In this document: positions 6,850 to 61,527 of the stretch, in pieces | Position numbering within the stretch: position 1 is the stretch's first letter | Layout: every line of letters starts with the position of its first letter | DNA from: Escherichia phage vB_EcoM-RPN187 | Length of the DNA: 64,000 bases | Reading direction: 5' to 3' (one strand) | Sequence record: OL770074.2 | Program-made: the position numbers and the translations under genes | The notes under the pieces: generated by a model | What the model saw: the letters and a program-made list of their open reading frames with translations, nothing else | The model's database searches: none | Told to the model about the DNA's origin: nothing

Positions 6850-7373
6850 CATTTTAGCAAAATAAAATCAACTTGTTCTGCCAATGAACGTCTGAACATT
6901 AATTGACAACTTCCGAGGATGAAATCAGGTGCTTCATAGACCGCGATGTAGTATCCTTTAGCTTTCAAGAGTTCAACATCCACCTGGTCATCAAACCATG
7001 CATAAACCGCGTCAACACTTTCAAATCCAAAATAGAACCCTTTAGCCCAATCTTCACTCAATTCAAATGTTTGCTCAATTCTATAGTATCTTAAGATATT
7101 TTGTTCAAGGAGTTTGTCTTCATTTACTGTAGGACGATTAGGGACATTGTAGTTGTCGCCGTGATGGTAGAAGTTACCTGAGAGTATTCCATGCTTATCA
7201 AGGAACTCCCATGTTTCTTCAGAGTTGTCGGTGCCCGACCAACCGTATGGCGAACGAGGTTCTTTATTCCAAGAGGTTTCCCAAATTCTGACGGCTTTAC
7301 CATCTTCGATAGCAATTCCTGGTAATGATTCACGTTGAGTACAAAAACTACGTTCTACGCGGTAAACTAACAT
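6849..7373 (-). CDS. hypothetical protein
   Basis: 174 aa, ATG start. Confidence 0.55.
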   Translation of the reverse strand: MLVYRVERSFCTQRESLPGIAIEDGKAVRIWETSWNKEPRSPYGWSGTDNSEETWEFLDKHGILSGNFYHHGDNYNVPNRPTVNEDKLLEQNILRYYRIEQTFELSEDWAKGFYFGFESVDAVYAWFDDQVDVELLKAKGYYIAVYEAPDFILGSCQLMFRRSLAEQVDFILLK

Positions 7374-7398
7374 ATTATTCTCCTCTGGTTGTTATGGT

Positions 7399-7427
7399 TA
7401 TAATATCAAAACCAGAGGAGAAGTAAA
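7399..7427 (-). promoter_or_regulatory. early promoter cassette: -35 GTTTAC, 17-nt spacer, -10 TATTAT; flanked by 9-bp inverted repeat overlapping the SD
   Basis: read on minus strand; arms cctctggtt 7381-7389 and aaccagagg 7410-7418. Confidence 0.6.
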
Positions 7428-7432
7428 CAACT

Positions 7433-7852
7433 TTATGCGAAAGCAGCTGGGCTATATTTTTTAATTTGGAATTCAGGAACTACCATGAACTGACCAGCGA
7501 AAACGATGTTATAAAGCTTAACACCATCTTCTACCCAACGGTCGCTAATAAATCCGGCGATTTGCTTAGTTTTCCACGGTGTTCCATCAGTTGCCGCAGC
7601 AATAGTGAATTCATGGTCTTTTTCAACAGAAACTGATCTGCATAGTCCCCATTTGAATGCTTTTTCTTCCGGTTCAATGAATTGGCTTTTAACATAACCA
7701 ATGTTACCATCGGCGTCACGAACTTTAACTTCGTTACGTCCAAAAACCGGATCACTCACAGAAAGAACTTCAACCAACTTCCCGGCAACTTTAGAGCGAG
7801 AAGCAACAGATACATATACGTAATCACCTGTAGAGAGATTTACAATATTCAT
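7433..7852 (-). CDS. hypothetical protein, paralog of 7862..8317
   Basis: 139 aa; shares SRSK.AG.LVEV and GFISD.WVEDG.KLYNIVF motifs with neighbour. Confidence 0.55.
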   Translation of the reverse strand: MNIVNLSTGDYVYVSVASRSKVAGKLVEVLSVSDPVFGRNEVKVRDADGNIGYVKSQFIEPEEKAFKWGLCRSVSVEKDHEFTIAAATDGTPWKTKQIAGFISDRWVEDGVKLYNIVFAGQFMVVPEFQIKKYSPAAFA

Positions 7853-7861
7853 AATAATTCC

Positions 7862-8317
7862 TTAAGCTTTACGAGGAGACACATAACGAGTGATTTCAGA
7901 TTCTTTAACAACTCGGAAGTCACCTAAGAATACGATATTGTATAACTTTTCGCCATCTTCAACCCATTGGTCACTAATGAAGCCACACATAGTATCAGTT
8001 TTGCTTGGATAACCGTATTCATCGATGAAGTCAAATTCTTTATCAGTCTGGAATTCAACACCTTTACAAAGCTCCCATTTGAACTGTACATTAGGTTCAG
8101 TAGAAGAAAAATGAGCGCTCACACGAGTTTCCAGGAATTTAGGACTTACGTAAGCGTACTGAGTATCCTGACGTCCAAAACTAGGAACGATTCGAACTTT
8201 AACTTCTTTAATGCGTCCCATGCCATTTGTGCGAAGTCCGACAACTTCAACCAGACGACCTGCGGCTTTAGACCGGGATGCAGTTGATACACGCTTAATT
8301 TCACCAATAGTAATCAT
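7862..8317 (-). CDS. hypothetical protein, paralog of 7433..7852
   Basis: start set to MITIGEIKRV (aligns with paralog); ORF-track N-terminus MEYNEF is the TATAAT promoter region. Confidence 0.55.
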   Translation of the reverse strand: MITIGEIKRVSTASRSKAAGRLVEVVGLRTNGMGRIKEVKVRIVPSFGRQDTQYAYVSPKFLETRVSAHFSSTEPNVQFKWELCKGVEFQTDKEFDFIDEYGYPSKTDTMCGFISDQWVEDGEKLYNIVFLGDFRVVKESEITRYVSPRKA

Positions 8318-8347
8318 AATTTTTCTCTCTTTGTTTAAGTTGAATTC

Positions 8348-8377
8348 ATTATACTCCATCCATCCATGGATGTAAAC
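8348..8377 (-). promoter_or_regulatory. early promoter: -35 GTTTAC, 18-nt spacer containing CCATGG palindrome, -10 TATAAT
   Basis: minus-strand read upstream of 7862..8317. Confidence 0.55.
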
Positions 8378-8382
8378 TGGTT

Positions 8383-9060
8383 TTATCGCTGTTTTACACT
8401 TAACGGGTCAGGATTTTCAGGGACATCTTCAAGACCAAGCGCATAACGCTGAGCATATTTTAACATCAAAATATCTTTAGCACAATCATGAATACTATCA
8501 TGGGCAACGAATCCTTTTAGCGTACCCATCGGTAATGGACACATACTTAATCCTCGTGTCAACGAGTAAGCTTCGATTGCCGTACGAATATCGCGTTGAG
8601 CCCAGAATTTAACCGGTTCTAATTTATCAGTATCAATATCTGGTTCAAGAACACCTTCATCACGATAGAGGTCACGAATCAAATCGACCAAGATCGGGAA
8701 GTCAAAGCTCATACCACGGCACCACATCTGTGATTTCCATTGGTCAACTTTATTAGCTCGGCAATAGTCTAAAAAGATTTTAATGCCTTCAAGCGTAGTG
8801 ACATCGTCTTCAGACGGAGCCAAGTTTTTACGTGCTTCAGCCGATTGTTCTTTCCACCATTTCATAGTGGATTTAGCGAAAACTCGCTTCCCTTTCTGAG
8901 AAGCTAAATTAAATTTAATTCGCTTACCTCGTTGAACAAGTTCTTCAAATGATTCAACAACTTCAGGGTCGGAATTATATGCAATAACCGCAAGGTCAAT
9001 AACAGCCGCTTTTGATGTATTGCCGAATGTTTCAAAATCTATAATAACATCAGTGCTCAT
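8383..9060 (-). CDS. dexA: exonuclease A (DEDD 3'-5' exonuclease)
   Basis: 225 aa; N-terminal IIDFETFG exo motif; T4 dexA position and size. Confidence 0.8.
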   Translation of the reverse strand: MSTDVIIDFETFGNTSKAAVIDLAVIAYNSDPEVVESFEELVQRGKRIKFNLASQKGKRVFAKSTMKWWKEQSAEARKNLAPSEDDVTTLEGIKIFLDYCRANKVDQWKSQMWCRGMSFDFPILVDLIRDLYRDEGVLEPDIDTDKLEPVKFWAQRDIRTAIEAYSLTRGLSMCPLPMGTLKGFVAHDSIHDCAKDILMLKYAQRYALGLEDVPENPDPLSVKQR

Positions 9061-12868: not shown

Positions 12869-12897
12869 ATCATAACACGAGAGGAGGGAATGTAAAC
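12869..12897 (-). promoter_or_regulatory. early promoter: -35 GTTTAC, 17 nt, -10 TATGAT
   Basis: minus-strand read upstream of modB-like gene. Confidence 0.5.
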
Positions 12898-19204: not shown

Positions 19205-19518
19205 ATTTCCTCGCAAAATGCCCATTCAGCGTGATAAACTGTAGCACCTTTAGTATTATTCATTTGAACTACGTCTACCGGAGAAATTACTCGATAGAGA
19301 CGTGGTTCACCTCCATAAGAGCGTGCTGCTCGTCCTGCATAAATCTTTGCTAAACCGATATCTTCAGTAAAGAATACACGATCCAAGTTTTTCTTACGTC
19401 CTGTTTCAGACAGAACTCCTGTTTCCTCAGGAGGACAAAGCATGTTTTCGATGTTAGCTGAACTACTTGAACCGTGATAAAAAATCTTAAATTCTGCTTT
19501 ACAATCGATGGTTTTCAT
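19201..19518 (-). CDS. hypothetical protein
   Basis: 105 aa, ATG, SD GGAG inside cassette stem. Confidence 0.5.
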   Translation of the reverse strand: MKTIDCKAEFKIFYHGSSSSANIENMLCPPEETGVLSETGRKKNLDRVFFTEDIGLAKIYAGRAARSYGGEPRLYRVISPVDVVQMNNTKGATVYHAEWAFCEEI

Positions 19519-19544
19519 TTTGTTCTCCAGTAGTTGATAGGTCT

Positions 19545-19573
19545 ATAATAACACAACTACTGGAGAAGTAAAC
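19545..19573 (-). promoter_or_regulatory. early promoter cassette: -35 GTTTAC, 17 nt, -10 TATTAT, flanked by 12-bp perfect inverted repeat containing the SD
   Basis: arms ctccagtagttg 19525-19536 and caactactggag 19554-19565. Confidence 0.6.
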
Positions 19574-19948
19574 TTAAAAATGTAATTTAGATATATCTGC
19601 GTTGATTTCGTTTTGGTTTGCGTCATATGCAATTAAACGAACCGCTTTAGATGGGTCATTCAATGCATAGAAATGATGGAACATTGCTCGAACGATATCA
19701 CCATTTACGAGTTTTACCTGGATAGGAGAACCTTTTTCGAGTTGGAAATGTTCATAAGCTTTGATGGTTCGCAGATAATCAAGTTTTTGATTTCCGGCTC
19801 CAACAATTTGTACGATACGTTTGCCCATGTTTTCCATACGAGATACAATAGTTTTAGGAGCAAGAATAACGTAGGTTGCCAGCGGAGAAACTACTTCAAC
19901 AGTTGTGTTTTCGGTGATTGCAGTAAAAATTGCTTGAGACATATTCAT
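19574..19948 (-). CDS. hypothetical protein
   Basis: 124 aa, ATG, SD GAGGAAAA. Confidence 0.5.
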   Translation of the reverse strand: MNMSQAIFTAITENTTVEVVSPLATYVILAPKTIVSRMENMGKRIVQIVGAGNQKLDYLRTIKAYEHFQLEKGSPIQVKLVNGDIVRAMFHHFYALNDPSKAVRLIAYDANQNEINADISKLHF

Positions 19949-29685: not shown

Positions 29686-32397
29686 TCAAAAATCGAACAT
29701 ATCGAACAGAGATGCTTTCTTCTCGTAATCGAGTTTCGCTGCTGATGTGAATCCTTCAAGTGGTTTAATAAATGTCTTCTCAAGGAGAACAGTGTAGTCC
29801 ATCCAATGAAGTACGTCGTCTTTAATTAAATCTGTGATTTCAGTACCAGAAGGCCATGCGATACATTTATCACCGAATGGGTTTCCTTCACGTAAAGGCA
29901 GAACATATACTTTTTCACCTTCTACAACTTGTGGTGCATCGATATTACCTTTGATAGCACGGTTATACGTCAGAATTCCACGAATATGGAATGGGCATTT
30001 AGGACCAGGGAATCCACCTACATCATATTTAGCAATGTTATTCGCAGAAGATACTGACGCGATGCTAATATAATTCAATTGACGGAATTCTTTTTCAAAC
30101 TCTTTAAAATATTCTTGTAATGATTCTTCGCCTTCCTGAAGCATACGACGAATACATTCTTTAAGAGCTTTCTGTACTGCTTTAGGAGTCGAAGATTTCT
30201 GAGTCTCTAGACCCATGATTTTGAGTTTAGGCTCAGCGTATCTGGTTCCTTCCATATCCCACACGTTTAATGCATAACGTTTCTTACCAGTCCAGAATCC
30301 ACCAATACCTTTAGAACCGAGTGGAGGCCCAGCGATAGCTTCTCGGTCCATGAACATTAAGTGTTGTTTATTGTTCATGTATTCACACATTTCACGGAAA
30401 CCTCTATCAATAGCTGGTTCCATACGTTCACGTGCAAACTTATCTAAGAAGTCTACCCAATGGTTGGTATCACGGAATTTAGATTCACCAACCTTATCGA
30501 TAATTTTATCAGCAGATACGTAAATAGAGTCTGTATCACCATAAAGAACGAAAGCTTCACCTTCTGTGCCACAAACTTCATTCAGATATTCATTAACTTT
30601 ACGTTCAATCCACTGTAAAGCCATTTGCCCGAATGTTGTGATTGCAGTAGCATTACGCAAATCGTAATAACGGAACCAAACGTTGCCAAGTGCACCATAA
30701 AGTGAGTTGATAAGCAATTTACGGTTAATTTGGGCAGTCATACCTGCAACTTCAGTACGTTGAGCTCTAAACAACATTTCATTAAGAGATTTAGCAGACA
30801 ACTTTTTAATCTTTTCTTTAATCTCATCACTGAAGTCGAAACGATAATCAACATCTAATGGTTCGTCAACAGAAAGATTAGGATTATGCAATGCCTCTTT
30901 AATTATTTCACCATTACGTTGAGCTGCAAGCATGTAACCTTTATGTTCTTTACGTTGATTAAAGACCTTAGTGATTTCAGTTGGAACAACACCGTCACGG
31001 TCTTTATAATACATCATGCCGTTAGGAGAACAACTGTACACATCAGAAGGACGTTCAGCAACAGCGTTAATATAATCATGTAATGGAGCTACTTTAAACG
31101 TTCCTGCTATTGTTTCTGGGCTAATATTCACTTGGCGAATAATACTTGGATACAGAGATGTAAGGTCGAAACTCATTACATATTTGTATCGATTTGGAAT
31201 AGGTTCCTTAACAAAAGCGCCTGGATAAGGTTGAACCGGGTGAGAACGACCTTGTGGAATCACCTTGTTCTGCTCTTTAAGGCTATTAAAAATAATAGCA
31301 TCCCATGTTTTAATTGGACTAAACACAGATTGAATCTGTATCTTAGCATAATAACCCATATCCAAACTCAAGTTGATGAACTGACGCTTAGCATCAATTT
31401 GCAATACACGATACACGTCGATAATGTTATAAGAAATATATCGTTGGTGATTGCTTTCACGAAGCTTAGAAATAGGGCCGTCATATTTCAGTTTACCAAC
31501 GTTCAATTCAAATTCTGAAATGTAATCCAGAGAATATGACGGTTGATTGGTAAAAGAGAATTTTTTGTAAAGGTCAATGTAATCAAGAACAGAGATACCG
31601 AACAATGTAATGATTTCACGAGAACCATACATGTTTTCGATAACTTTAACACGAGTTTTACGATGTGGTGATAAACGTTTCGCAGTAGATTCGCCAAAAA
31701 TATTCTTTATTCGGTTATACACATACGGAATATCAAATGACTCAACGTTCCATCCAGTCAAAACGACAGGAGTTTTCTGTTGCCAGAAGTTGAGATATTC
31801 CATCAACAATTCTTTTTCGTTATCGAACGGCATATAAATGATTTTATCGATAATTTCGGATGGAACTTCATCACCACCTTGTTCTTGAAGCTTAGCCGCA
31901 ATTTCGATAGACCATTCTTCTACATTACCATATGGAGAATTCAAAAGGTCAAATACGTAGAACCTGTCGTCAATTGAGTCATAATGAGTGATAGCATCAA
32001 TCGGGTGTTTTGCTTGTGACGGCTCAGGGAACCCATCCGGAGATGTTACTTCGATGTCGAAGTTAGCCACACGAATTTTTGTATGGTCGTATTTGATTTC
32101 ATAGTTATAAGTGTCAGACAAATACGCCAATTTGAAATCGTCCATGCCAAGTGCTTCAAGTCCGATATCTTCCATGCGTTTAATCCATTGGGAGGCATCA
32201 CGCATATTGGCGAACAACTTACGAGTACACGGCTTACCGTAGATATCGAAATATTTCGTAGCCTGACTTTCTGGACAATGAGCAAACAGTGATGGTTTAT
32301 ATTCTACTTCACGAGTACGTTCACGGCCGTTAGAATCGATGTAACGTTCAAAAATTGAATCACCAATCTGTTCAACCGTTAAGTAAAATTCTTTCAT
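29686..32397 (-). CDS. 43: DNA polymerase gp43 (family B, with 3'-5' exonuclease)
   Basis: 903 aa; exo and pol motifs (FDIE, YGDTDS, SLYGALG); T4 gp43 898 aa. Confidence 0.92.
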   Translation of the reverse strand: MKEFYLTVEQIGDSIFERYIDSNGRERTREVEYKPSLFAHCPESQATKYFDIYGKPCTRKLFANMRDASQWIKRMEDIGLEALGMDDFKLAYLSDTYNYEIKYDHTKIRVANFDIEVTSPDGFPEPSQAKHPIDAITHYDSIDDRFYVFDLLNSPYGNVEEWSIEIAAKLQEQGGDEVPSEIIDKIIYMPFDNEKELLMEYLNFWQQKTPVVLTGWNVESFDIPYVYNRIKNIFGESTAKRLSPHRKTRVKVIENMYGSREIITLFGISVLDYIDLYKKFSFTNQPSYSLDYISEFELNVGKLKYDGPISKLRESNHQRYISYNIIDVYRVLQIDAKRQFINLSLDMGYYAKIQIQSVFSPIKTWDAIIFNSLKEQNKVIPQGRSHPVQPYPGAFVKEPIPNRYKYVMSFDLTSLYPSIIRQVNISPETIAGTFKVAPLHDYINAVAERPSDVYSCSPNGMMYYKDRDGVVPTEITKVFNQRKEHKGYMLAAQRNGEIIKEALHNPNLSVDEPLDVDYRFDFSDEIKEKIKKLSAKSLNEMLFRAQRTEVAGMTAQINRKLLINSLYGALGNVWFRYYDLRNATAITTFGQMALQWIERKVNEYLNEVCGTEGEAFVLYGDTDSIYVSADKIIDKVGESKFRDTNHWVDFLDKFARERMEPAIDRGFREMCEYMNNKQHLMFMDREAIAGPPLGSKGIGGFWTGKKRYALNVWDMEGTRYAEPKLKIMGLETQKSSTPKAVQKALKECIRRMLQEGEESLQEYFKEFEKEFRQLNYISIASVSSANNIAKYDVGGFPGPKCPFHIRGILTYNRAIKGNIDAPQVVEGEKVYVLPLREGNPFGDKCIAWPSGTEITDLIKDDVLHWMDYTVLLEKTFIKPLEGFTSAAKLDYEKKASLFDMFDF

Positions 32398-32446
32398 TTA
32401 ATTTCCTTTAGACGAGTTATTGTCTTTTGTTTGTTGATGAACTTAT

Positions 32447-32466
32447 TATACTCCAAATGGGACCGA
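32447..32466 (-). terminator. stable stem-loop AAUGGGAC-UUCG-GUCCCAUU between regA and gene 43 (terminator-like, no clean U-run)
   Basis: 8-bp perfect stem with UUCG loop about 60-80 nt upstream of gp43 ATG. Confidence 0.4.
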
Positions 32467-32482
32467 AGTCCCATTGCTTGCT

Positions 32483-47494: not shown

Positions 47495-47543
47495 TGTTTC
47501 GACGTCCGGCTCGACAGTTTCCCATCGAGCCGAATACCATGGT

Positions 47544-47861
47544 TTAACCCCGGAGTTTATTGAGCTCTTCATAATCAATCCAGGATTCTAGCCCTGACGG
47601 CAGGTCACATTCAATGTTCCACAGAAGCTCTTCGATGGCTTGTAGGCGATTATATTCTTCAACAGTAATAGTAACCATTGTTTCAGGCTTTTTAACCATC
47701 ATGTCATTCATCAGAATGTACAGGTCGTCCCATGTCCATATTTCAGCATCTCGAACTAATGAAGTCGGAATCGAATTTAAAACTTCAATCTTAGTAGGAG
47801 CGTCAGGGCCGAGAAGAGTTGCTACAAATTTATACGCTCTGGCGAAATCAATATCATTCAT
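47544..47861 (-). CDS. hypothetical protein
   Basis: 105 aa, ATGA overlap with nrdC stop. Confidence 0.5.
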   Translation of the reverse strand: MNDIDFARAYKFVATLLGPDAPTKIEVLNSIPTSLVRDAEIWTWDDLYILMNDMMVKKPETMVTITVEEYNRLQAIEELLWNIECDLPSGLESWIDYEELNKLRG

Positions 47862-48121
47862 TTAAAATATTCTCGCAGTTGGTCAAATCCACCAATGTGA
47901 CTTCCGTCAGGAGCAAACACTTGAGGCATAGTCAATCCGACTTGTGATTCACGTCCAAGCTTAACCAGAAGCTCAGCAATTTTCTCATCATCAAAAACAC
48001 CTTTTTCTGGCATAACATTAATGAATTCAAATGGCTGTTTCTTAACAGTCAGCAATCGTTTCGCATTATCGCAATAAATGCATTTATGAATAGTAGAGTC
48101 ATACCCATACACTTTAAACAT
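47858..48121 (-). CDS. nrdC: thioredoxin/glutaredoxin NrdC
   Basis: 87 aa from ATG (MFKVYGYDS...CIYC), nearly identical to recalled T4 NrdC. Confidence 0.85.
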   Translation of the reverse strand: MFKVYGYDSTIHKCIYCDNAKRLLTVKKQPFEFINVMPEKGVFDDEKIAELLVKLGRESQVGLTMPQVFAPDGSHIGGFDQLREYFK

Positions 48122-48527
48122 TATTTTTCCTTTCATCAATTAAATATGCAATGCCAAATACAATACATGTAATAAAACCTGTGATACAGATAGAAACCAA
48201 CAACACTGTACCAAAGAACCAAATCAAGTTATCTTTAGTAGTTTGTTTGATATCCATCTCACGAATTTCTATAGCTATCGTATCACCTTTATTAAGAAGC
48301 GTATAAAACGATGGTGATACATGCCTGTCAAAAACTCGTCCTTGTTCATCTTTATAAACTGCAATAAATTCTAATTTAGAATATTTTCCTGTAGATTGAC
48401 CTGAGATTAATTCTACTACCTCCACAGGAATTACTTTAGTTTCCATGTAAGTATTCTGGCTGTTCCAAATGAATGGAATGATGGCAAAAACTAAAGCTGT
48501 AATAAAACAACGAAGGCTATATCTCAT
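48114..48527 (-). CDS. hypothetical membrane protein
   Basis: 137 aa; N- and C-terminal hydrophobic segments. Confidence 0.5.
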   Translation of the reverse strand: MRYSLRCFITALVFAIIPFIWNSQNTYMETKVIPVEVVELISGQSTGKYSKLEFIAVYKDEQGRVFDRHVSPSFYTLLNKGDTIAIEIREMDIKQTTKDNLIWFFGTVLLVSICITGFITCIVFGIAYLIDERKNNV

Positions 48528-48832
48528 TATAATGTTCTCTCAAATTTGTGGAAGCATTTACGGCATTTCAATTTCAAGTTATCAGTGGTCCAGTTAACCA
48601 GTTGGACTTGGATAGTTCCACATTCCGGACATGGATGTTTTGCTGCCGATTTGGCAGCATTTTCACGTCGTTCAACCATTTTCATTATTTCGTTCCATGC
48701 CGGAGGAACGAACTCTTCTTCACCGTGGATTTTATCTCGCTGAACAAATTCAATCTTTGAACTATCGTCGATAAACTTAACCAAGCTGTGATTAGTGCTC
48801 ATGTCAATATCCTCTAAAAGACGTAGTTTCAT
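48527..48832 (-). CDS. hypothetical zinc-ribbon protein
   Basis: 101 aa; CPECG...CRKC; SD GAGGT. Confidence 0.5.
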   Translation of the reverse strand: MKLRLLEDIDMSTNHSLVKFIDDSSKIEFVQRDKIHGEEEFVPPAWNEIMKMVERRENAAKSAAKHPCPECGTIQVQLVNWTTDNLKLKCRKCFHKFERTL

Positions 48833-49782
48833 TATAAAACCTCAATGGCATTTCGTAAACCATCCGCTTTCGCATTCAGAGCTTTTAACGATTTAGTTTT
48901 TTCTGCAATCTGGGCTTCGACTTCTTTCAGTCGAGATTTGAGATATTCGCGTTCTTCTCTTAAATTATCAACTTTTTCTACTTTAGGTTCTTTAATAGGC
49001 TTAGGTTTATACGTATTAGGGTTCTTCAGTTTAATTAGAATGTGTGAACTGTACAGCATTGAACCATTATCTTCGGTTTCGTCATACATTTCCACTACGT
49101 CCATCATCTCCACCATCGTGCAGAGTTTATAAGACAACGAACGAATAGTTTTGTTGTGCTTATTAATTTCTTTAGAGTTCATGGTGCCTAGATTACGCGA
49201 GTAGTAATAAGGAACCTGGATATCAATTGTCAATGATGCGTTACCATTACCAGTTGGTTTGAATACTGCAGTAACCCAATCTTTAACATGAACTTTATTT
49301 GTACGACCATCGCCACCTGTGAATAATTTACGAGAATGTTTAAAAAGCATATTCACTTGGTTATTGAATTCACAAGCAAATTTATCAGCAAATTTAGTTT
49401 CAGGAATGGTAGATAACCAATCAGCCAAGTAGGTCTTTTTAACATCGTTAACAATAGTAAATTCAACCAAATCGGTTATAGATGTCGCAGTTTTAATGAA
49501 GCTCGGCTTCATAAAGTTTTTAATGTTATCGCGAGCTACAGTAGAAGATAATAAACGAGAACGTTTGAACCATTGAAGCAGTGTCCCTAATGAATGAGAA
49601 TACGCGTTTTGAGTATCTTTACAGATATGATTTTCTTGGCCTGTGTATGTACCAAAATCGCGAAGAATGCCACTTACTACAACTCGGTGTGGAACATCAA
49701 ATCCTAATGATCCAGAAGCACGTTGGGCATGAACGTTAGCGATAAGACCTGCAAAATAATCAATGTAATGTGAACGTGTCAT
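48832..49782 (-). CDS. hypothetical protein with C-terminal coiled coil
   Basis: 316 aa, ATG, SD GAGAGGAAA. Confidence 0.55.
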   Translation of the reverse strand: MTRSHYIDYFAGLIANVHAQRASGSLGFDVPHRVVVSGILRDFGTYTGQENHICKDTQNAYSHSLGTLLQWFKRSRLLSSTVARDNIKNFMKPSFIKTATSITDLVEFTIVNDVKKTYLADWLSTIPETKFADKFACEFNNQVNMLFKHSRKLFTGGDGRTNKVHVKDWVTAVFKPTGNGNASLTIDIQVPYYYSRNLGTMNSKEINKHNKTIRSLSYKLCTMVEMMDVVEMYDETEDNGSMLYSSHILIKLKNPNTYKPKPIKEPKVEKVDNLREEREYLKSRLKEVEAQIAEKTKSLKALNAKADGLRNAIEVL

Positions 49783-49810
49783 AATATTTTCCTCTCGTTA
49801 AGATAGAAAG

Positions 49811-49840
49811 ATTATACTCCAACCATCCTTGGTTGTAAAC
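49811..49840 (-). promoter_or_regulatory. early promoter: -35 GTTTAC, 18-nt spacer with small hairpin, -10 TATAAT
   Basis: minus-strand read; near-identical copy at 50804..50831. Confidence 0.55.
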
Positions 49841-49844
49841 TGAT

Positions 49845-50777
49845 TTATGATTTTAATGCATTCATTGCGTTAAAAAGTTTAGAGTACTGCAACTGGAGCT
49901 TGGTGACTACTTGTTGAGCATCACGAAGCTTAGCTTGTGCTTTGTCAAGTTCAACAGACAGTTGGTCCACAGTGCCTTTGATTTGATTATAATAGTAATC
50001 TTCTGCAGGAAGAAGACCGTTAGAGATTTCCAGTTTAGTCGACGGTGTGCCATTAAACATAACAGGTTGTGCTGAAGCCGCATTAATCTTACCGATAGTC
50101 GGGGCGACAATAATTGACGCTTCGAACGTTGCATTTTCCTTTTTAAGATTTTTATAATATTCAGAGTCTTTGTGCCACCATGGTGCAGGAACCTTTTTAC
50201 CAATAGATACACGAGCCTGGATAGCGATATGGCCCTTATTCTTGATAGGGTCGATAATATTAAGCTCACGAGAATAAATTGCTTTAATCTGGTGGATATT
50301 ATCACCTAACACTTCCAACGCTTGGTGGAATACACGAGCAACGTTATCATTCTTAGGTTTATACGTAAGAGTGAACTCGTTCTCACTGATAACCATGATT
50401 TCTAACTTATCGTAAGTATATTTCAAATGTTTCATGTTAATTGCTTGAGGACGAATACGAGAAGCAATGGCCATCAAATTGTTAAGGTTATTCCGGAACT
50501 GCTTAGCGAAATATTGTCCTTCACCGCCAATACAAAAATTACGAAGTTTCTGTTTGGCTAATAAACGGCTGAACTCACCATTTTTAATGAACTCTTTAAC
50601 GGGTGTGTTAGTAACGCATTCAAATTGAGTAAACTTACGAGAAGTAATCCCATAATATGAACAGATTTCCTCAATCTCTTCAGGAGTCTTTACAGGCATA
50701 CGGATAGGATTAGGACCTGGGGTATATGCGTTCGAGGTAAATTCTTTGATAAGTTCTCTACGTGTAATAGAAGCCAT
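49845..50777 (-). CDS. hypothetical protein with C-terminal coiled coil
   Basis: 310 aa, ATG, SD AGGA. Confidence 0.55.
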   Translation of the reverse strand: MASITRRELIKEFTSNAYTPGPNPIRMPVKTPEEIEEICSYYGITSRKFTQFECVTNTPVKEFIKNGEFSRLLAKQKLRNFCIGGEGQYFAKQFRNNLNNLMAIASRIRPQAINMKHLKYTYDKLEIMVISENEFTLTYKPKNDNVARVFHQALEVLGDNIHQIKAIYSRELNIIDPIKNKGHIAIQARVSIGKKVPAPWWHKDSEYYKNLKKENATFEASIIVAPTIGKINAASAQPVMFNGTPSTKLEISNGLLPAEDYYYNQIKGTVDQLSVELDKAQAKLRDAQQVVTKLQLQYSKLFNAMNALKS

Positions 50778-50803
50778 TTTATATTCCTCATGTTGAAAAA
50801 TTT

Positions 50804-50831
50804 ATTATACTCCAACCATCCTTGGTTGTAC
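50804..50831 (-). promoter_or_regulatory. early promoter, variant -35 GTACAA, -10 TATAAT
   Basis: near-identical to cassette at 49811..49840. Confidence 0.45.
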
Positions 50832-50832
50832 A

Positions 50833-51828
50833 TCATTCCTTAAGAAGTTTTACTACTTGAATAAGATTAGCTCGTTCTGTTTTATTTTTACCGTTTAAGC
50901 CTGCTAATCGTGAGATTTCATCGTCAGTCTGTTGAATAGTTACATTAAGTTCGTTAATCAAAGCTTCAAAGTATTTGATTTGCTCAGCATGTTTTGATTC
51001 AAATTTCTGAACCGGAATAACGTCTTGGTTCAGTTCATCAATAAGGTCTTTAAGAGCATCTTCTTGATTGATATCATATTCAACTTCTTTTATTTCTTCA
51101 ACGAGCTCGTCTTTATATCTAACGTCTTTTAGTCCTGGTGCTGGTCCTGAAATCTCTTCTTTAAGAGTACAAACATATCCAATACGGTATCCAATGCCGT
51201 CTCGCTTGATATCAACTTCGTCAATAAATCCACAATGTTTAAGACCAGAGCCGATTAAGTCAAAATATCCTTGACGACGTCCTTCAAACGTTACACGAAC
51301 TACTAAGACAGTTTTACCTGCAACCTTTTGAAGCTCACATTTATAAAAGTTTGTTGAACCTGAATAACGTGGATGAGTTTTAAAGTTCATCTGACGATCT
51401 AGGCCCATTTGTAAGCGTGCTGATACGGCCATAAAACGTGTTTGGTTCTCGTTAAGATGAGCAACAATCCATTTCAAAGGCATTTTACACTGTTCACGTC
51501 CGAACAAATCAGTACGTCCTAGATTACGCAGGATGTTGTTAGAGTTAATCATCGACAGAACGTTAAGTTTATTCAGCGCGCTGAAGATTCCATCGGCCAT
51601 TGATTTTCCGTAACCTTTACACGCTTTAATAAGCGCTCGCGGTAGATTAGTATAGATTTCAGACGGCATATGAAAATCAAATTTACTAGTCAGTAATTGA
51701 TGAACTTGGATAGCAATTTGCTCATAATTAAGTGCTCTGCGATCATTATGGTCTTTAAACCACACTTTAATCTGTGAAGCACATAAACCGTTAATTTCAT
51801 GTTTTACCGCATCAGATGTAATGCTCAT
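50833..51828 (-). CDS. hypothetical protein with C-terminal coiled coil
   Basis: 331 aa, ATG, SD GAGGAAA. Confidence 0.55.
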   Translation of the reverse strand: MSITSDAVKHEINGLCASQIKVWFKDHNDRRALNYEQIAIQVHQLLTSKFDFHMPSEIYTNLPRALIKACKGYGKSMADGIFSALNKLNVLSMINSNNILRNLGRTDLFGREQCKMPLKWIVAHLNENQTRFMAVSARLQMGLDRQMNFKTHPRYSGSTNFYKCELQKVAGKTVLVVRVTFEGRRQGYFDLIGSGLKHCGFIDEVDIKRDGIGYRIGYVCTLKEEISGPAPGLKDVRYKDELVEEIKEVEYDINQEDALKDLIDELNQDVIPVQKFESKHAEQIKYFEALINELNVTIQQTDDEISRLAGLNGKNKTERANLIQVVKLLKE

Positions 51829-51863
51829 AACTATTTCCTCAGATTGAATTGGAACTCAAAACC

Positions 51864-51889
51864 ATTATAACCCGTCCTTGGGTAAAGCG
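51864..51889 (-). promoter_or_regulatory. possible middle-type promoter (CGCTTTA box 13 nt upstream of -10 TATAAT)
   Basis: box deviates from TGCTT consensus. Confidence 0.3.
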
Positions 51890-51890
51890 T

Positions 51891-52418
51891 TTATGCGTGA
51901 ACCGTCTTTAAACGTTCTTCAAATTTCCGAAGAGTACTAATACGTTCTGCTTTCTGTTTTGTATAGTTTGCAATACGTTCTGAAGTGAGAGCGTATCGTT
52001 CATTTACTGTTTCTTTCATGAAGTCAGGGATTTCACGAGAAGCTTTAATTTCATCAAACTTATCGAGTACTGCCTGGTCTTCAGTGATTAAATTTTCGTA
52101 CATCTCGATATCTTTCTTGATGAAGTCGATATCTTCCTGGGTTACTTTGGATAAACGAGATGCTTTATCCTTTTTGTACTGCTCGTTAGTTTCACGAGAC
52201 CAGAATAATGTACGTTTTTTGTTAGTGTTTTTGTAGACTTCCACAATTCCAACTGAATCAATGATAGCAATCCAATTCCAGCGAGATTTGAAAATCTGAC
52301 CTCCGTCCACGGTAATCTCGTTACCATAAGCAACGTCATTAAAGAACTTGCTTTGTGCTTCAGATTTAAATTTACCGTCGTTATAATTTACCAGGTTGAA
52401 AATATCTTTAGCGTTCAT
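51891..52418 (-). CDS. hypothetical protein
   Basis: 175 aa, ATG, SD GGAGGT. Confidence 0.55.
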   Translation of the reverse strand: MNAKDIFNLVNYNDGKFKSEAQSKFFNDVAYGNEITVDGGQIFKSRWNWIAIIDSVGIVEVYKNTNKKRTLFWSRETNEQYKKDKASRLSKVTQEDIDFIKKDIEMYENLITEDQAVLDKFDEIKASREIPDFMKETVNERYALTSERIANYTKQKAERISTLRKFEERLKTVHA

Positions 52419-52445
52419 GTTTTACCTCCAGTAGTTGATAGGTCT

Positions 52446-52474
52446 ATAATAACACAACCATAGACCTTGTAAAC
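52446..52474 (-). promoter_or_regulatory. early promoter: -35 GTTTAC, 17 nt, -10 TATTAT
   Basis: minus-strand read; contains gataggtctataata core. Confidence 0.55.
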
Positions 52475-52476
52475 AA

Positions 52477-52764
52477 CTAAAAGAAACTTTTTTCGGTATT
52501 TTTTCCACTGAACCAAACAGACTTCGGGACTTTCTGTAATTTTTCAGATTTAAGTTTCTCTTCCTGTTCTTTCTTATATGCATCCTTGTCGTACTGGAAC
52601 AACTCTAGGGCATTCTTTTGTAGACGGTCTAAGGTAATTAAGGCTTTAGTTTTTCCTTTCAAGGAAGAGTCCTGGCGAACCTCCTCGCTATATTGCATCG
52701 TAGAACTAACCATACGATGAGCATACAGTTCGACTGCGGCTTTAATTTTTTGCATAAAATCCAT
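52477..52764 (-). CDS. hypothetical protein
   Basis: 95 aa, ATG, SD GAGGA. Confidence 0.5.
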   Translation of the reverse strand: MDFMQKIKAAVELYAHRMVSSTMQYSEEVRQDSSLKGKTKALITLDRLQKNALELFQYDKDAYKKEQEEKLKSEKLQKVPKSVWFSGKNTEKSFF

Positions 52765-52902
52765 AACATATCCTCTTTGATTTGTACACCATTATTTTTA
52801 AATATTTCTATGCCCTCAGTAGGTTCCTGGTGTCCTTCTTTGAGGTAAGCCATATGATTATTCATCTTTATGGCTTTTGTTACCTCAGAACTTCCTATAA
52901 GC

Positions 52903-53883
52903 TTATTTCAGTAAAGTTACTTCAGAGATTTCTTCCCAACCATCTTTATCAGTTGAAATAAAATCTGCTACATAAAGAGCCGTACGTAATGATACATTGC
53001 GAAGACGAGATACGTTAGCCTTCATCCAGGACAATGCTTTATACGTTTCTGCATCGGTCAGACCACGTTTCTGCATCATGTCAGTAGATAATATTACATC
53101 TTCAACTCGAACCATAATCTCTTCATTAGAGTGTACTCCAAGGTCGAGATACACCGAACGAGATACTAAAGCTTGAAGGTGTGGGGCAAGTTTCGAACCG
53201 CGTTCTAACTCTTTATCGATATCAACGTTTGTAATGAAAACGATAGTACCTTCAAACTCAAATTCTTTATCAATACCCTTATCATCGAGATAAGATGACG
53301 CAGTGCTCCAGCAAACTTTGCGTTTATCTCCAGTATCTAATGCTGCTTTAAGAAGGTTCAAGATGTCCATATCTGAGAATACGTCAACGTCGTCGATTAA
53401 GAGAACGCTGTCTGCATCACGGTTGAGCCAAAGTTGTTCGTAAAGGCCAATACCGGAGATTTTACCATTAATGCTTTTGTATTTGATGAAACCATTATCA
53501 TTAGCGTTATTAAGTGCTTTATCCAGAGAATACGTCTTACCAATACCAGCTGCACCTGAAATAATGAGTGAACGAATTTTGCCATCGATAATGCCATTCG
53601 TCATCATGTTCATTACTTTAAAGCGTTTGTTGATACGAGTTTTCATATCTTCAGTGCTTTCAACAACTGCAACTGGTGATGTCTCAACTCCTTCCATTAC
53701 GATGTCTGATTTGAAGACCCATACTCCACGTTCAGAACCATCAATCATAACGAAAATTTTACCATCACCTAAGTGGGAACATTCAGGATTAAGCTTTGCC
53801 GGGAACCATGTCTTTGTGGCGACATAAGAACCAGAGATTTCGTTATTACGATAGATACCTTTTTTGATTTGAACGTTGAACAT
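52903..53883 (-). CDS. P-loop NTPase (AAA-like) of unknown function
   Basis: Walker A GAAGIGKT, Walker B LLIDDVD; ATG (MFNVQIKKG) with SD GGAG chosen. Confidence 0.55.
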   Translation of the reverse strand: MFNVQIKKGIYRNNEISGSYVATKTWFPAKLNPECSHLGDGKIFVMIDGSERGVWVFKSDIVMEGVETSPVAVVESTEDMKTRINKRFKVMNMMTNGIIDGKIRSLIISGAAGIGKTYSLDKALNNANDNGFIKYKSINGKISGIGLYEQLWLNRDADSVLLIDDVDVFSDMDILNLLKAALDTGDKRKVCWSTASSYLDDKGIDKEFEFEGTIVFITNVDIDKELERGSKLAPHLQALVSRSVYLDLGVHSNEEIMVRVEDVILSTDMMQKRGLTDAETYKALSWMKANVSRLRNVSLRTALYVADFISTDKDGWEEISEVTLLK

Positions 53884-53921
53884 TTTATTCTCCAATTTAC
53901 TCATTTCGTTTCGATAGGTCT

Positions 53922-53950
53922 ATAATAACATGTTTAAAGCAAAAGTAAAC
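53922..53950 (-). promoter_or_regulatory. early promoter: -35 GTTTAC, 17 nt, -10 TATTAT
   Basis: minus-strand read. Confidence 0.55.
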
Positions 53951-53952
53951 AA

Positions 53953-54171
53953 TTATTTGCGACGAGATTTTTTGGTAAGAGGTTGAAAGAACACTGCTTT
54001 ACCTGCTGGGGTTAAGGTGACTCGTAACGCATTACCGATTCCCAAGGATGCTTTAACTAGACCTTTAGCTTTCAGTTCACCGAATGCTTGACGTTGGTCT
54101 GCATCACGAGTGTTAACCATAAGACCTTTATCACCAGCTTCACGAATCATTTCTAACATTTTGGTTTTCAT
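53953..54171 (-). CDS. hypothetical small basic protein (72 aa)
   Basis: ATG (MKTKMLEM) with SD GAGGAG; track N-terminus is translated cassette (IDLSKQEEN). Confidence 0.5.
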   Translation of the reverse strand: MKTKMLEMIREAGDKGLMVNTRDADQRQAFGELKAKGLVKASLGIGNALRVTLTPAGKAVFFQPLTKKSRRK

Positions 54172-54199
54172 TTTGTTCTCCTCTTGTTTTGATAGGTCT

Positions 54200-54227
54200 A
54201 TAATAACATATCCTAAAAGCATGTACA
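54200..54227 (-). promoter_or_regulatory. early promoter, variant -35 TGTACA, -10 TATTAT
   Basis: gataggtctataata core. Confidence 0.45.
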
Positions 54228-54280
54228 CTACTTTTTTAAAAATATTTTAACCCCCTAAAGGGACCCGAAGGTCCCCACAT

Positions 54281-54562
54281 TTACTTATCACACTTAGCAA
54301 CATAATTAGGCATATCACAGAATACGGAGCGAGTAACTACTCGGCCCTTTGACCATGCTTCAGTTGCTTGTCCGGCTGTGCTATTGATATAGCTTGATCT
54401 AATGTTCTCAATACCCTGAGAATGTGATGCATTTACCGAACCATTAGAAGACCCAGAAGACTGGTTACCACCAGCTCCTGCGCTACCGCTGGCTGCACCC
54501 GTGGTAGCACCGACAGAGAATGCCATCATTACTGCGAATAAACCAATTACTAATTTTTTCAT
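54281..54562 (-). CDS. hypothetical secreted Gly/Ser-rich small protein
   Basis: 93 aa; signal peptide MKKLVIGLFAVMMAFSVGA; SD GAGGT. Confidence 0.5.
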   Translation of the reverse strand: MKKLVIGLFAVMMAFSVGATTGAASGSAGAGGNQSSGSSNGSVNASHSQGIENIRSSYINSTAGQATEAWSKGRVVTRSVFCDMPNYVAKCDK

Positions 54563-54593
54563 ATTTACCTCAAGTTAATGGTTATTTATCTAC

Positions 54594-57624: not shown

Positions 57625-57653
57625 ACTATAACACAACCTGAGGAGAAGTAAAC
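57625..57653 (-). promoter_or_regulatory. early promoter: -35 GTTTAC, 17 nt, -10 TATAGT; 7-bp inverted repeat includes the SD
   Basis: minus-strand read. Confidence 0.55.
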
Positions 57654-60790: not shown

Positions 60791-61249
60791 CTAGATTTTA
60801 ATCACTGCTTTAGAAGCTTTTCCTGGTAGTCGTTTACTGTTAATAATAGCCATTCTGCATTGAAGAGTCTTCATTTTGAACGCTGGATTTTCGCGACAAA
60901 CTGTAAGTCCTAACCAAAGATTTCCGTCAGTTATTTCTAAACGGCCTGGGCGATATTCGACACCTTCGACAAAATCTTCATCAACATCTGGACGTGCCGG
61001 CATTGATAAAAATTCTGTAACTTCTTTAACATGATTTTTTACTTTACGAAATAATTCAAAAACGTAGTTCTCATCTATTTCTCTCTGGATGGCACGATCT
61101 AAGAGATGTTGAGAATACTTGATATGAAAGCCTGGTAGTCCAAGAGACTTTGCAGCATCTTTTATACCGGCATTTATTTTGCGGAACTCCGTTTCAAAGA
61201 TTCGACGGAGTTTATTACGGCGGATAAAAACGTCAGAATTGATAGTCAT
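60791..61249 (-). CDS. regB: endoribonuclease RegB
   Basis: 152 aa; closely matches recalled T4 RegB (FHIKYSQHLLDRAIQREIDE...RPGRLEITDGNLWLG). Confidence 0.85.
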   Translation of the reverse strand: MTINSDVFIRRNKLRRIFETEFRKINAGIKDAAKSLGLPGFHIKYSQHLLDRAIQREIDENYVFELFRKVKNHVKEVTEFLSMPARPDVDEDFVEGVEYRPGRLEITDGNLWLGLTVCRENPAFKMKTLQCRMAIINSKRLPGKASKAVIKI

Positions 61250-61277
61250 TTTTTATTTCTCCTCTAGTTGACAGGTC

Positions 61278-61306
61278 TATAGTAACACAACTAGAGGAGA
61301 AGTAAA
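61278..61306 (-). promoter_or_regulatory. early promoter cassette: -35 GTTTAC, 17 nt, -10 TACTAT, flanked by 9-bp inverted repeat CTCTAGTTG/CAACTAGAG next to regB SD
   Basis: minus-strand read. Confidence 0.6.
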
Positions 61307-61311
61307 CTACT

Positions 61312-61527
61312 TTATTGATAAAATGGAGTTAAAGCCCAAGATTCTTTAGATACCATATCGGCGAAATGCCTCATCTCTTCGATTTGGCGACGACGCTGGT
61401 CAGCATAGTCTTCTTCGCCTTCTTCCTTACAATCTTCAAGGTCTTCTTCAAGATACTTTAAGTATTCACTACAAATTTTGTTGACCTTTTCTTGAAAGTC
61501 CAATAACCCAGTAATAGTAGAAGCCAT
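61312..61527 (-). CDS. hypothetical small acidic protein
   Basis: 71 aa, TAATG overlap. Confidence 0.5.
   Translation of the reverse strand: MASTITGLLDFQEKVNKICSEYLKYLEEDLEDCKEEGEEDYADQRRRQIEEMRHFADMVSKESWALTPFYQ

Follow-up and report, generated by a model that had tools for sequence, protein, structure and literature searches.

Why should consecutive, unrelated genes of a T4-type phage be preceded by almost the same 30 nucleotides? The question arises in a stretch of the Escherichia phage vB_EcoM-RPN187 genome (sequence record OL770074.2), analysed here over its full 64,000 nucleotides (nt) and called the window below. The sequence at 49811-49840, attatactccaaccatccttggttgtaaac, recurs at 50804-50833, where 28 of 30 positions agree and 27 nt are identical (50804-50830), and at 8348-8377, where 27 of 30 match. 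The three copies, designated A, B and C, are read on the minus strand and lie ahead of a homolog of T4 nrdC.3, an nrdC.5-like gene and motB, respectively. It is probable, at roughly 80%, that they are compact T4-type early promoter cassettes of the promoter-early stem-loop (PeSL) kind, that copies recombine with one another, and that a hairpin encoded in their promoter spacer is under selection.

A repeated cassette, probably an early promoter

A search allowing up to three mismatches returns exactly these three copies in the 64 kb and nothing in any of 100 dinucleotide-preserving shuffles. A repeat finder groups the same three sites (family D9), with a reach of about 49 nt. On the minus strand the copies read GTTTAC-AACCAAGGATGGTTGGAG-TATAAT (A), aTGTAC-AACCAAGGATGGTTGGAG-TATAAT (B) and GTTTAC-ATCCATGGATGGATGGAG-TATAAT (C), and all 18 spacer bases are shared between A and B. 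The early sigma-70 pattern (-35 GTTTAC/TTTACA, spacer of 17-18 nt, -10 TATAAT) is exact in A and C, while B has TGTACA; within the surrounding 9 kb, the highest-scoring sigma-70 match (11/12) is that of cassette A. Each cassette is intergenic and correctly oriented, fills a gap of 55-62 nt between the stop codon of the preceding gene and the Shine-Dalgarno sequence (SD) and ATG of the next, and places these last two elements 22-30 nt beyond the -10, with the ATG at 28-30 nt. From this consensus, together with the mapping in T4 of a related cassette discussed below, we infer that the copies are T4-type early promoters recognised by host sigma-70, each of which would supply its downstream gene with a promoter of its own. 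Host sigma-70 RNA polymerase would be expected to start about 7 nt past TATAAT, giving separate transcripts for nrdC.3, the nrdC.5-like gene and motB.

A preliminary description of the window had noted the near-identity of A and B, a related copy upstream of the gene at 7862..8317, and the presence of a separate gene behind each copy. All three observations hold: the gene at 7862..8317 is motB, and the flanked genes are not paralogs. The TATAAT cassettes of that description are real, but their strand, the embedded hairpin, the PeSL precedent and a diverged fourth copy at 51864-51888 had been missed.

T4 early promoters have consensus positions beyond the -35 and -10 (Hinton review, PMC2988021), and many other GTTTAC..TAT(A/T)AT sites occur in the window, so the copies might be alike by convergence, with neither a shared origin nor a role in recombination. 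However, about 25 such sites ahead of minus-strand genes have quite different spacers, and the 18/18 spacer identity is therefore not something that a promoter requires. Between phages, moreover, the similarity spans about 72-80 nt, through the 5' untranslated region (UTR) and into the first codons. Together with the exact hybrid junction described in the next section, in which the repeats have recombined, these observations largely refute convergence, which is very unlikely.

A tandem duplication of gene plus promoter would also leave such repeats, and the 993-bp distance between A and B, in front of neighbouring genes whose products are similar in length (316 and 310 amino acids, aa), is of the kind expected. 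Yet an all-against-all BLASTP comparison of the nrdC.3, nrdC.5-like, nrdC.6-like and other flanking proteins found nothing better than E=0.6, and the proteins belong to different Pfam and PHROG families. Since they are unrelated, the repeat is confined to regulatory DNA; tandem duplication is rejected at the sequence level and has hardly any credibility left.

Gene presence and absence between cassettes

The 27-nt identity of A and B goes beyond what a promoter needs and would provide short direct repeats for the homologous recombination of the phage. Recombination between them would remove or insert one unit, a gene plus one cassette, and leave the neighbours undisturbed, a step that is shown by comparative evidence. 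A synthetic 458-nt deletion junction was assembled from the 3' end of the nrdC.6-like gene, the shared repeat and the 5' end of nrdC.3. Over its whole length and without a break, it aligns with 21 phage records at 90-98% identity; the nrdC.5-like gene is precisely absent from these and present in 132 phage records. In the annotations of phages F2 and AV109 the nrdC.6-like gene is followed by a 57-nt gap and nrdC.3. These two junctions were read at base level, the other 19 records being matched as one-piece alignments of 90.4-98.3% identity. Both consist of GGAATGATGTAC, AACCAAGGATGGTTGGAGTATAAT and CTTTCTATCTTAAC in succession, which correspond to the flank upstream of copy B, the core common to both copies and the flank downstream of copy A (in short form, GGAATGATGTAC-AACCAAGGATGGTTGGAGTATAAT-CTTTCTATC); they lie within the shared 27 nt and form an exact B/A hybrid cassette. 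The records of AV112, which has the gene, and AV109, which does not, both give extended-spectrum beta-lactamase (ESBL) E. coli hosts from wastewater or pig waste in Denmark.

Breaks in homology fall at cassettes between genera as well. Nucleotide homology between the window and T4 stops inside the cassette downstream of nrdC.8 (51860) and picks up again precisely where the -35 of cassette A lies (49839). The same 72-nt cassette is found ahead of unrelated genes in different phages; cassette A, for example, is 80% identical over 80 nt to a cassette of JS10 that precedes a different gene, nrdC.4. The gene order is nrdC.8-.7-.6-.5-.4-.3-.2 in T4, nrdC.8-.6-.5-.3-.2-.7 in RB69 and the window, and nrdC.8-.6-x-.4-.2 in JS10 and SP18, so that nrdC.3 and nrdC.4 occur as alternatives and nrdC.7 has changed place. 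In an IMG/VR contig (L077), a motB.1-like open reading frame (ORF; 164 aa) and a second cassette stand where the window has a single cassette, and the two homology blocks overlap on the cassette.

The preliminary description had read the copies as signs of module-wise acquisition, each gene with its own promoter, and had proposed to check whether the flanked genes vary among related phages. Such variation is now documented, and the view of modules carrying promoters stands. The direction implied by acquisition does not follow: deletion by recombination between repeats is at least as good an explanation, given that T4 and RB69 have distant homologs of nrdC.5. The locus is a clean natural example of accessory gene gain or loss in T4-type phages, with an exact junction at a 27-nt promoter repeat in the two genomes read at base level. 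It supports the modular shuffling model proposed for PeSLs in a genus in which they had not been described. For annotators, what varies as a unit in the nrdC and motB regions is a "promoter plus gene" of about 1 kb.

Several further observations concern variable content in and around these loci. The nrdC.7 homolog of the window (48114-48527; 43% identity to T4) is found between nrdC.2 and nrdC, whereas T4 has nrdC.7 between nrdC.8 and nrdC.6; the displacement is the same in RB69. A motB.1-like gene upstream of motB is absent from the window (8318-8384) and present in T4 and in two Mosigvirus-like contigs of IMG/VR (L077:1280-1960; L081, phiE142-like), in which the cassette ahead of motB.1 is 90% identical over 72 nt to the window nrdC.3 cassette, 5' UTR included. 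An IMG/VR protein search with the nrdC.5-like protein returned only two loci. F2 (L371, NC_054913) is filed as a Tequatrovirus; its nrdC region is Mosigvirus-like, 98% identical to the window, and its notes cite JS09 and APCEc01, so that either the genome is a mosaic or its classification is questionable. A variable slot at 53905-54593, between nrdC.11 and nrdC.10, holds small ORFs (53953-54228, 54281-54562) that are found in AV112 and not in HX01; RB69 has one different ORF there. A terminator-like hairpin with UUCG (about 54249-54265) and promoters of the TATTATAGACCTATC type border this slot.

A hairpin in the promoter spacer

In every copy the spacer forms a stem of 5-8 bp with a four-base loop, located after the -35 and ahead of the -10. 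The hairpins of the window cassettes are listed in Table 1. Those of relatives are CATCCA-AGGA-TGGATG in JS10, CTTCCA-AGGA-TGGAGG in SP18 (one G-U pair), (G/A)CCACA-AGGA-TGTGGT and TTATACCA-AGGA-TGGTATAA in T4, and CACCA-(C/T)GGA-TGGTG and GGCCA-TGGA-TGGCC in other T4-like contigs, the last occurring six times in one contig of 54.7 kb. The apex CA-NGGA-TG is constant, and the outer stem varies by compensatory substitutions (AACCA/TGGTT, ATCCA/TGGAT, AGCCA/TGGCT, CCACA/TGTGG, CACCA/TGGTG, GGCCA/TGGCC); within the window, the stem of C carries a compensatory T/A swap relative to A and B. The register of the hairpin relative to the -10 shifts by 0-7 nt.

Covariation was measured on 69 distinct promoter spacers, chosen only for containing CANGGATG and not for a stem, in an ungapped 18-nt alignment; a MAFFT alignment of 28-nt segments was discarded, its 3' arms being shifted. 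The covariation score is 0.329, versus 0.159±0.021 in shuffles, none of 500 of which reach the observed value. Paired cells amount to 70.6% in register and 24-45% in slid registers, and a permutation test gives 108 consecutive outer pairs versus 29±6.

The design was then sought in IMG/VR, where counts from pattern scans are among the matches listed. The pattern CCAAGGATGG-N0-8-TATAAT gave mostly chance matches and was replaced by patterns that include the -35. Among promoters of the form TTGACA..CANGGATG..TATAAT, 15/49 have at least two extra stem pairs (6% expected, p=2e-7). The corresponding counts are 3/24 for the reversed apex CATCCNTG, 3/38 for the permuted apex CANAGGTG, and 4/114 for the original pattern in bacterial and archaeal genomes (Fisher test, viral contigs against genomes, p=4e-6). 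The hairpin is orientation-specific and is enriched in viral contigs, not in bacterial genomes.

Some of the carriers were characterised further. Loci L130, L149, L307 and L356 are T4-like by tblastx; L058, L309 and L027 had no megablast match in the phage collection, and PHROGs were uninformative on their ORFs. The T4-like contig IMGVR_UViG_3300016464_000352 (54.7 kb; L309:966-5649, L307:3077-3106) has at least six copies of GTTTACTTT(C/G)GGCCATGGATGGCCTATAAT; four of six share a near-identical 5' UTR, three intervals measure only 238-461 nt, and the contig has no megablast match among deposited phages. Perfect TTGACA-N17-TATAAT promoters with spacer hairpins of the same design (GTGCA-GGGA-TGCAC, GCCCA-AGGA-TGGGC, GCGTA-GGGA-TGCGC, TCGCCA-AGGA-TGGCGA, GCCA-CGGA-TGGC) occur in two large contigs, IMGVR_UViG_3300021514_000002 (363 kb; L027, L159) and IMGVR_UViG_3300013126_000015 (102 kb; L058, L120).

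What such a hairpin is for can be approached through its form. PeSL stem-loops were originally viewed as transcription attenuators or terminators that insulate modules from upstream transcription, which would make the GGA apex incidental. One RB49/phi1 PeSL stem-loop lowered the expression of lacZ to the same extent as rrnB T1 did, and the common stem-loop positions listed include "between -35 and -10" (Arbiol et al., PMC2839356). The stems described here, however, have only 5-8 bp and -5 to -10 kcal/mol and are followed by GGAGUAUAAU rather than a U tract; they do not combine the GC-rich stem and U run of intrinsic terminators, and a terminator scan of the minus strand finds none at these gaps. 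Attenuation also leaves unexplained an invariant, orientation-specific NGGA apex with its CA/UG closing pair, and we regard it as unlikely.

An inverted repeat inside a promoter, where repressors often bind, could instead act as duplex DNA, either as an operator for a dimeric protein or as a cruciform or site-specific recombination site resembling integron attC, and PeSL stems have been speculated to be possible targets of recombination proteins (Arbiol et al., PMC2839356). Several features speak for an RNA element instead. The arm positions covary and are not conserved, pointing to base pairing and not to sequence read-out; the apex is asymmetric and orientation-specific relative to the promoter; and an operator would have to accommodate the shifting register to the -10. 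On the sense strand G-T mismatches are tolerated but A-C mismatches are not (12 cases and 1, respectively, at the first non-Watson-Crick position), subject to a caveat of composition. A DNA operator or recombination site is accordingly rather improbable, although no recombinase gene was searched for.

The favoured combination of promoter cassette, recombining repeat and selected hairpin has points against it. Copy B has a degenerate -35. A single event could be the origin of all 21 deletion genomes, and it could have been a loss or a gain. Each hairpin is weak, and intergenic gaps folded as a whole do no better than shuffles (z -1.0 to +1.3), so that the case for the hairpin rests on covariation. 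The excess of G-T over A-C favours an RNA or sense-strand structure and is confounded by base composition. About 10-11 viral contigs bear the hairpin, T4-like ones among them, and common descent may thus account for part of the signal across phages. Finally, the promoter, the recombination and any RNA-protein contact are, for this phage, predicted from sequence.

Two simpler accounts of conserved parts of the cassette were rejected. An extended -10 (TGn) as the cause of the conserved GGATG and GGAG conflicts with the variable register to TATAAT and with the G-15 A-14 of the window copies. A mini-ORF of four codons (ATG GTT GGA GTA TAA) has no usable SD spacing, and its frame is not conserved in the T4 copies. 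A search of 47500-53000 with Rfam covariance models gave no match at E<=1.

A possible role on read-through RNA

The hairpin lies upstream of the predicted transcription start of its own cassette, so that only transcripts begun at promoters farther upstream and reading through would contain it. The minus-strand terminator scan finds no terminator-like site separating these genes. Other early promoters of the window (Table 1) show a related arrangement, in which the spacer (UUCUCC...) pairs with the downstream SD (GGAGAA) and the -10 lies in the loop (-19 to -24 kcal/mol, z -3.4 to -4.7). According to these folds, the pairing would mask the SD on read-through RNA only and not on promoter-proximal RNA. 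By analogy, the GGA-loop hairpin probably marks read-through RNA likewise.

If the 5-8 bp hairpin with its CA-NGGA-UG apex is maintained by selection, a factor that recognises GGA loops could be what reads it, and the host protein CsrA and the phage endoribonuclease RegB are candidates. In vitro selection for CsrA binding gave the consensus RUACARGGAUGU, whose GGA is presented in the loop of a hairpin (Dubey et al. 2005, summarised in PMC4347634). Its core ACARGGAUGU is matched exactly by the T4 copies (ACAAGGAUGU); the window copies, with CCA..UGG, match 8/10 of the consensus core, and GGA is in the tetraloop in all copies. A second GGA follows 8 nt downstream, and ahead of nrdC.3 and the nrdC.5-like gene the SD, 34-36 nt downstream, supplies a third; the SD of motB (AGAGAGA) has none. 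RegB cuts GGAG/U in intergenic early mRNA and prefers an unpaired GGA with the fourth base constrained (PMC3014915). The loop GGA followed by a paired U fits that preference, and the adjacent GGAGUAUAAU matches 4/7 context positions of GGAGRAYARAA.

We therefore put forward, tentatively and with more doubt than confidence, that the CA-NGGA-UG hairpin may be a phage-specific signal on read-through RNA, recruiting host CsrA (or RegB in T4-type phages) so that the downstream cistron is silenced or cut. Expression of each gene would then depend on its own promoter alone, and a previously unrecognised link would join the host Csr system to early gene expression in T4-like and other large phages. 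The literature search found no paper connecting CsrA with T4 promoters, and a recent study describes the role of CsrA homologs in phage life cycles as untested (PMC11879866). The GGA-loop hairpin offers a testable idea for how own-promoter transcripts could be told from read-through transcripts, with CsrA and RegB as candidate factors.

Related elements in T4 and the gene 43 site

At homologous positions T4 carries related elements ahead of nrdC.3 (AGCCAAGGATGGCTCGGAGTATAAA), ahead of nrdC.4 (GTTTACTTTGCCACAAGGATGTGGTATAAT, with a near-identical copy ahead of rIIA.1) and ahead of nrdC.7 (GCTTTATACCAAGGATGGTATAAT). The copies ahead of rIIA.1 and nrdC.4 (GTTTACTTT(A/G)CCACAAGGATGTGGTATAAT) are one base apart in sequence and about 48 kb apart in the genome (L301 about 2410-2450, L003 about 8930-8970). 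T4 PnrdC.7 is a mapped MotA-dependent middle promoter with its start at 53325 (PMC2988021). That start is 7 nt past the T4 -10 of the element with the TTATACCA-AGGA-TGGTATAA hairpin, and the diverged copy of the window is its positional homolog.

The site upstream of gp43, listed in the preliminary description as another related copy, is of a different class. It does share TTGGAGTATAAT (32456-32445) with the cassettes, and in a 39-nt register it agrees with the motB copy at 72% (family D20), but GTTTAC and CCAAGGATGG are both absent and a UUCG hairpin lies upstream instead. T4 shows the same layout, and T4 P43 is a mapped middle promoter with its start at 29933 (PMC2988021), about 5 nt past the T4 TATAAT. 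By its sequence and layout, the gp43 site is the counterpart of the middle promoter P43 of T4 and is not a member of the cassette family. A test for MotA boxes gave GCTTTA at the diverged copy and ACTTCG in the gp43 hairpin loop, with mapped T4 starts for the homologs of both. The UUCG hairpin between regA and gene 43 (window 32456-32475; T4 29945-29965, L301) occupies the place where the MotA box of P43 is expected, and its loop and stem include GCTTCG in T4 and ACTTCG in the window. A single stretch may serve both as the 3' hairpin of the regA RNA and as the MotA box of P43 DNA.

Features and flanked genes

Mosigvirus (RB69-like) phages, among them AV112, HX01 and JS09, match the region at 95-98% identity, and the genes of the region are all on the minus strand (Table 1). 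Near motB, a 49-nt direct repeat (71%; 7766-7814 and 8243-8291) is shared by the start of motB and the gene immediately downstream, and the motB.1-like protein of contig L077 also matches the window at 7475-7855 (26% over 130 aa). These sequences suggest that motB, motB.1 and the gene downstream of motB form a small paralog family.

Table 1. Cassettes, related promoters and flanked genes of the window, with positions in window coordinates
Feature	Position	Strand	Description
Cassette A	49783..49844	-	Entire gap between nrdC.5-like gene and nrdC.3
Cassette A, promoter hexamers	-35 GTTTAC 49840-49835; -10 TATAAT 49816-49811	-	
Cassette A, hairpin	CAACCA(49835-49830)-AGGA(49829-49826)-TGGTTG(49825-49820)	-	-6.9 kcal/mol
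Cassette A, downstream elements	GGAG 49820-49817; SD GAGAGGAA; ATG 49782-49780	-	
Cassette B	50778..50835	-	Gap between nrdC.6-like and nrdC.5-like genes
Cassette B, -35-like element	TGTACA 50832-50827	-	Abuts TGA stop of upstream gene (50835-50833)
Cassette B, hairpin	CAACCA(50828-50823)-AGGA(50822-50819)-TGGTTG(50818-50813)	-	
Cassette B, downstream elements	GGAG 50813-50810; -10 TATAAT 50809-50804; ATG 50777-50775	-	
Cassette C	8318..8384	-	Upstream of motB
Cassette C, promoter hexamers	-35 GTTTAC 8377-8372; -10 TATAAT 8353-8348	-	
Cassette C, hairpin	CATCCA(8372-8367)-TGGA(8366-8363)-TGGATG(8362-8357)	-	
Cassette C, downstream elements	GGAG 8357-8354; motB ATG 8317-8315	-	
Fourth, diverged relative	51829..51890	-	Between nrdC.8 and nrdC.6-like gene; GCTTTACCCAAGGACGGGTTATAAT at 51864-51888
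Diverged relative, elements	MotA-box-like GCTTTA 51888-51883; hairpin ACCC-AAGGAC-GGGT 51883-51870; -10 TATAAT 51869-51864	-	
gp43 site, P43-type middle promoter	32445..32475	-	UUCG hairpin 32475-32456; GGAG 32454-32451; -10 TATAAT 32450-32445
Promoters with spacer-SD pairing	19510-19580, 7365-7435, 61240-61312; similar at 57625-57653, 12869-12897	-	
nrdC.3 homolog	48832..49782	-	316 aa; 57% identity to T4 nrdC.3; downstream of cassette A
nrdC.5-like gene	49845..50777	-	310 aa; DUF7235 (PF23882, 1.3e-111); 24% identity to T4 nrdC.5; between cassettes B and A
nrdC.6-like gene	50833..51828	-	331 aa; 38% identity over 127 aa to T4 nrdC.6; annotated nrdC.6 in RB69; upstream of cassette B
motB	7862..8317	-	151 aa; Pfam motB E=5.8e-37; downstream of cassette C

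Comparison with known systems

With the early and middle promoters of T4 (Hinton 2010, PMC2988021) the cassettes share the -35 GTTTAC/TTTACA, the 17-18 nt spacer and the -10 TATAAT. The spacers of ordinary T4 early promoters differ from one another, however, whereas here 18/18 spacer bases are shared and encode a hairpin.

The resemblance to CsrA/RsmA sites lies in a GGA-containing tetraloop closed by CA/UG; the Mosigvirus copies differ in having CCA and UGG in place of ACA and UGU. To our knowledge, the promoter spacer is not a known context for a CsrA site. Strong known RegB sites are mostly SDs with an A-rich 3' context, and GGAU sites are rare (Uzan & Miller 2010, PMC3014915), so the cassette hairpins differ from them and stand as candidate sites. 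Translational masking in T4 (gene e and similar, PMC3014915) has in common with the cassettes a promoter inside a structure and a 5' element found only on read-through RNA, and other early promoters of the window would achieve the same through spacer-SD pairing. The cassette spacer does not pair with the SD and forms a self-contained GGA-loop hairpin instead.

The closest precedent is that of the PeSLs of RB49/phi1 (Arbiol et al. 2010, PMC2839356) and of PST/T4 and nt-1/KVP40 (Comeau et al. 2014, PMC4122927), for which recombination between conserved promoter/stem-loop cassettes is modelled to delete or insert the intervening ORF. As in those phages, a small intergenic cassette is repeated, combining an early promoter and a stem-loop and followed by SD and ATG; cassettes concentrate in hyperplastic regions ahead of genes of unknown function (here three copies and one diverged, in the nrdC and motB regions); indels between close relatives break within the cassette; and a stem-loop between -35 and -10 is one described subclass. 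The present cassettes differ in belonging to the genus Mosigvirus, the main texts of both studies mentioning neither nrdC, motB nor RB69, and in having short stems with a CA-NGGA-TG apex, in contrast to the GN-loop-CN of RB49 and the AGNA-loop-TCNT of PST. They thus belong to the known PeSL kind and are new in Mosigvirus, and the CA-NGGA-UG hairpin may be the part that is new altogether.

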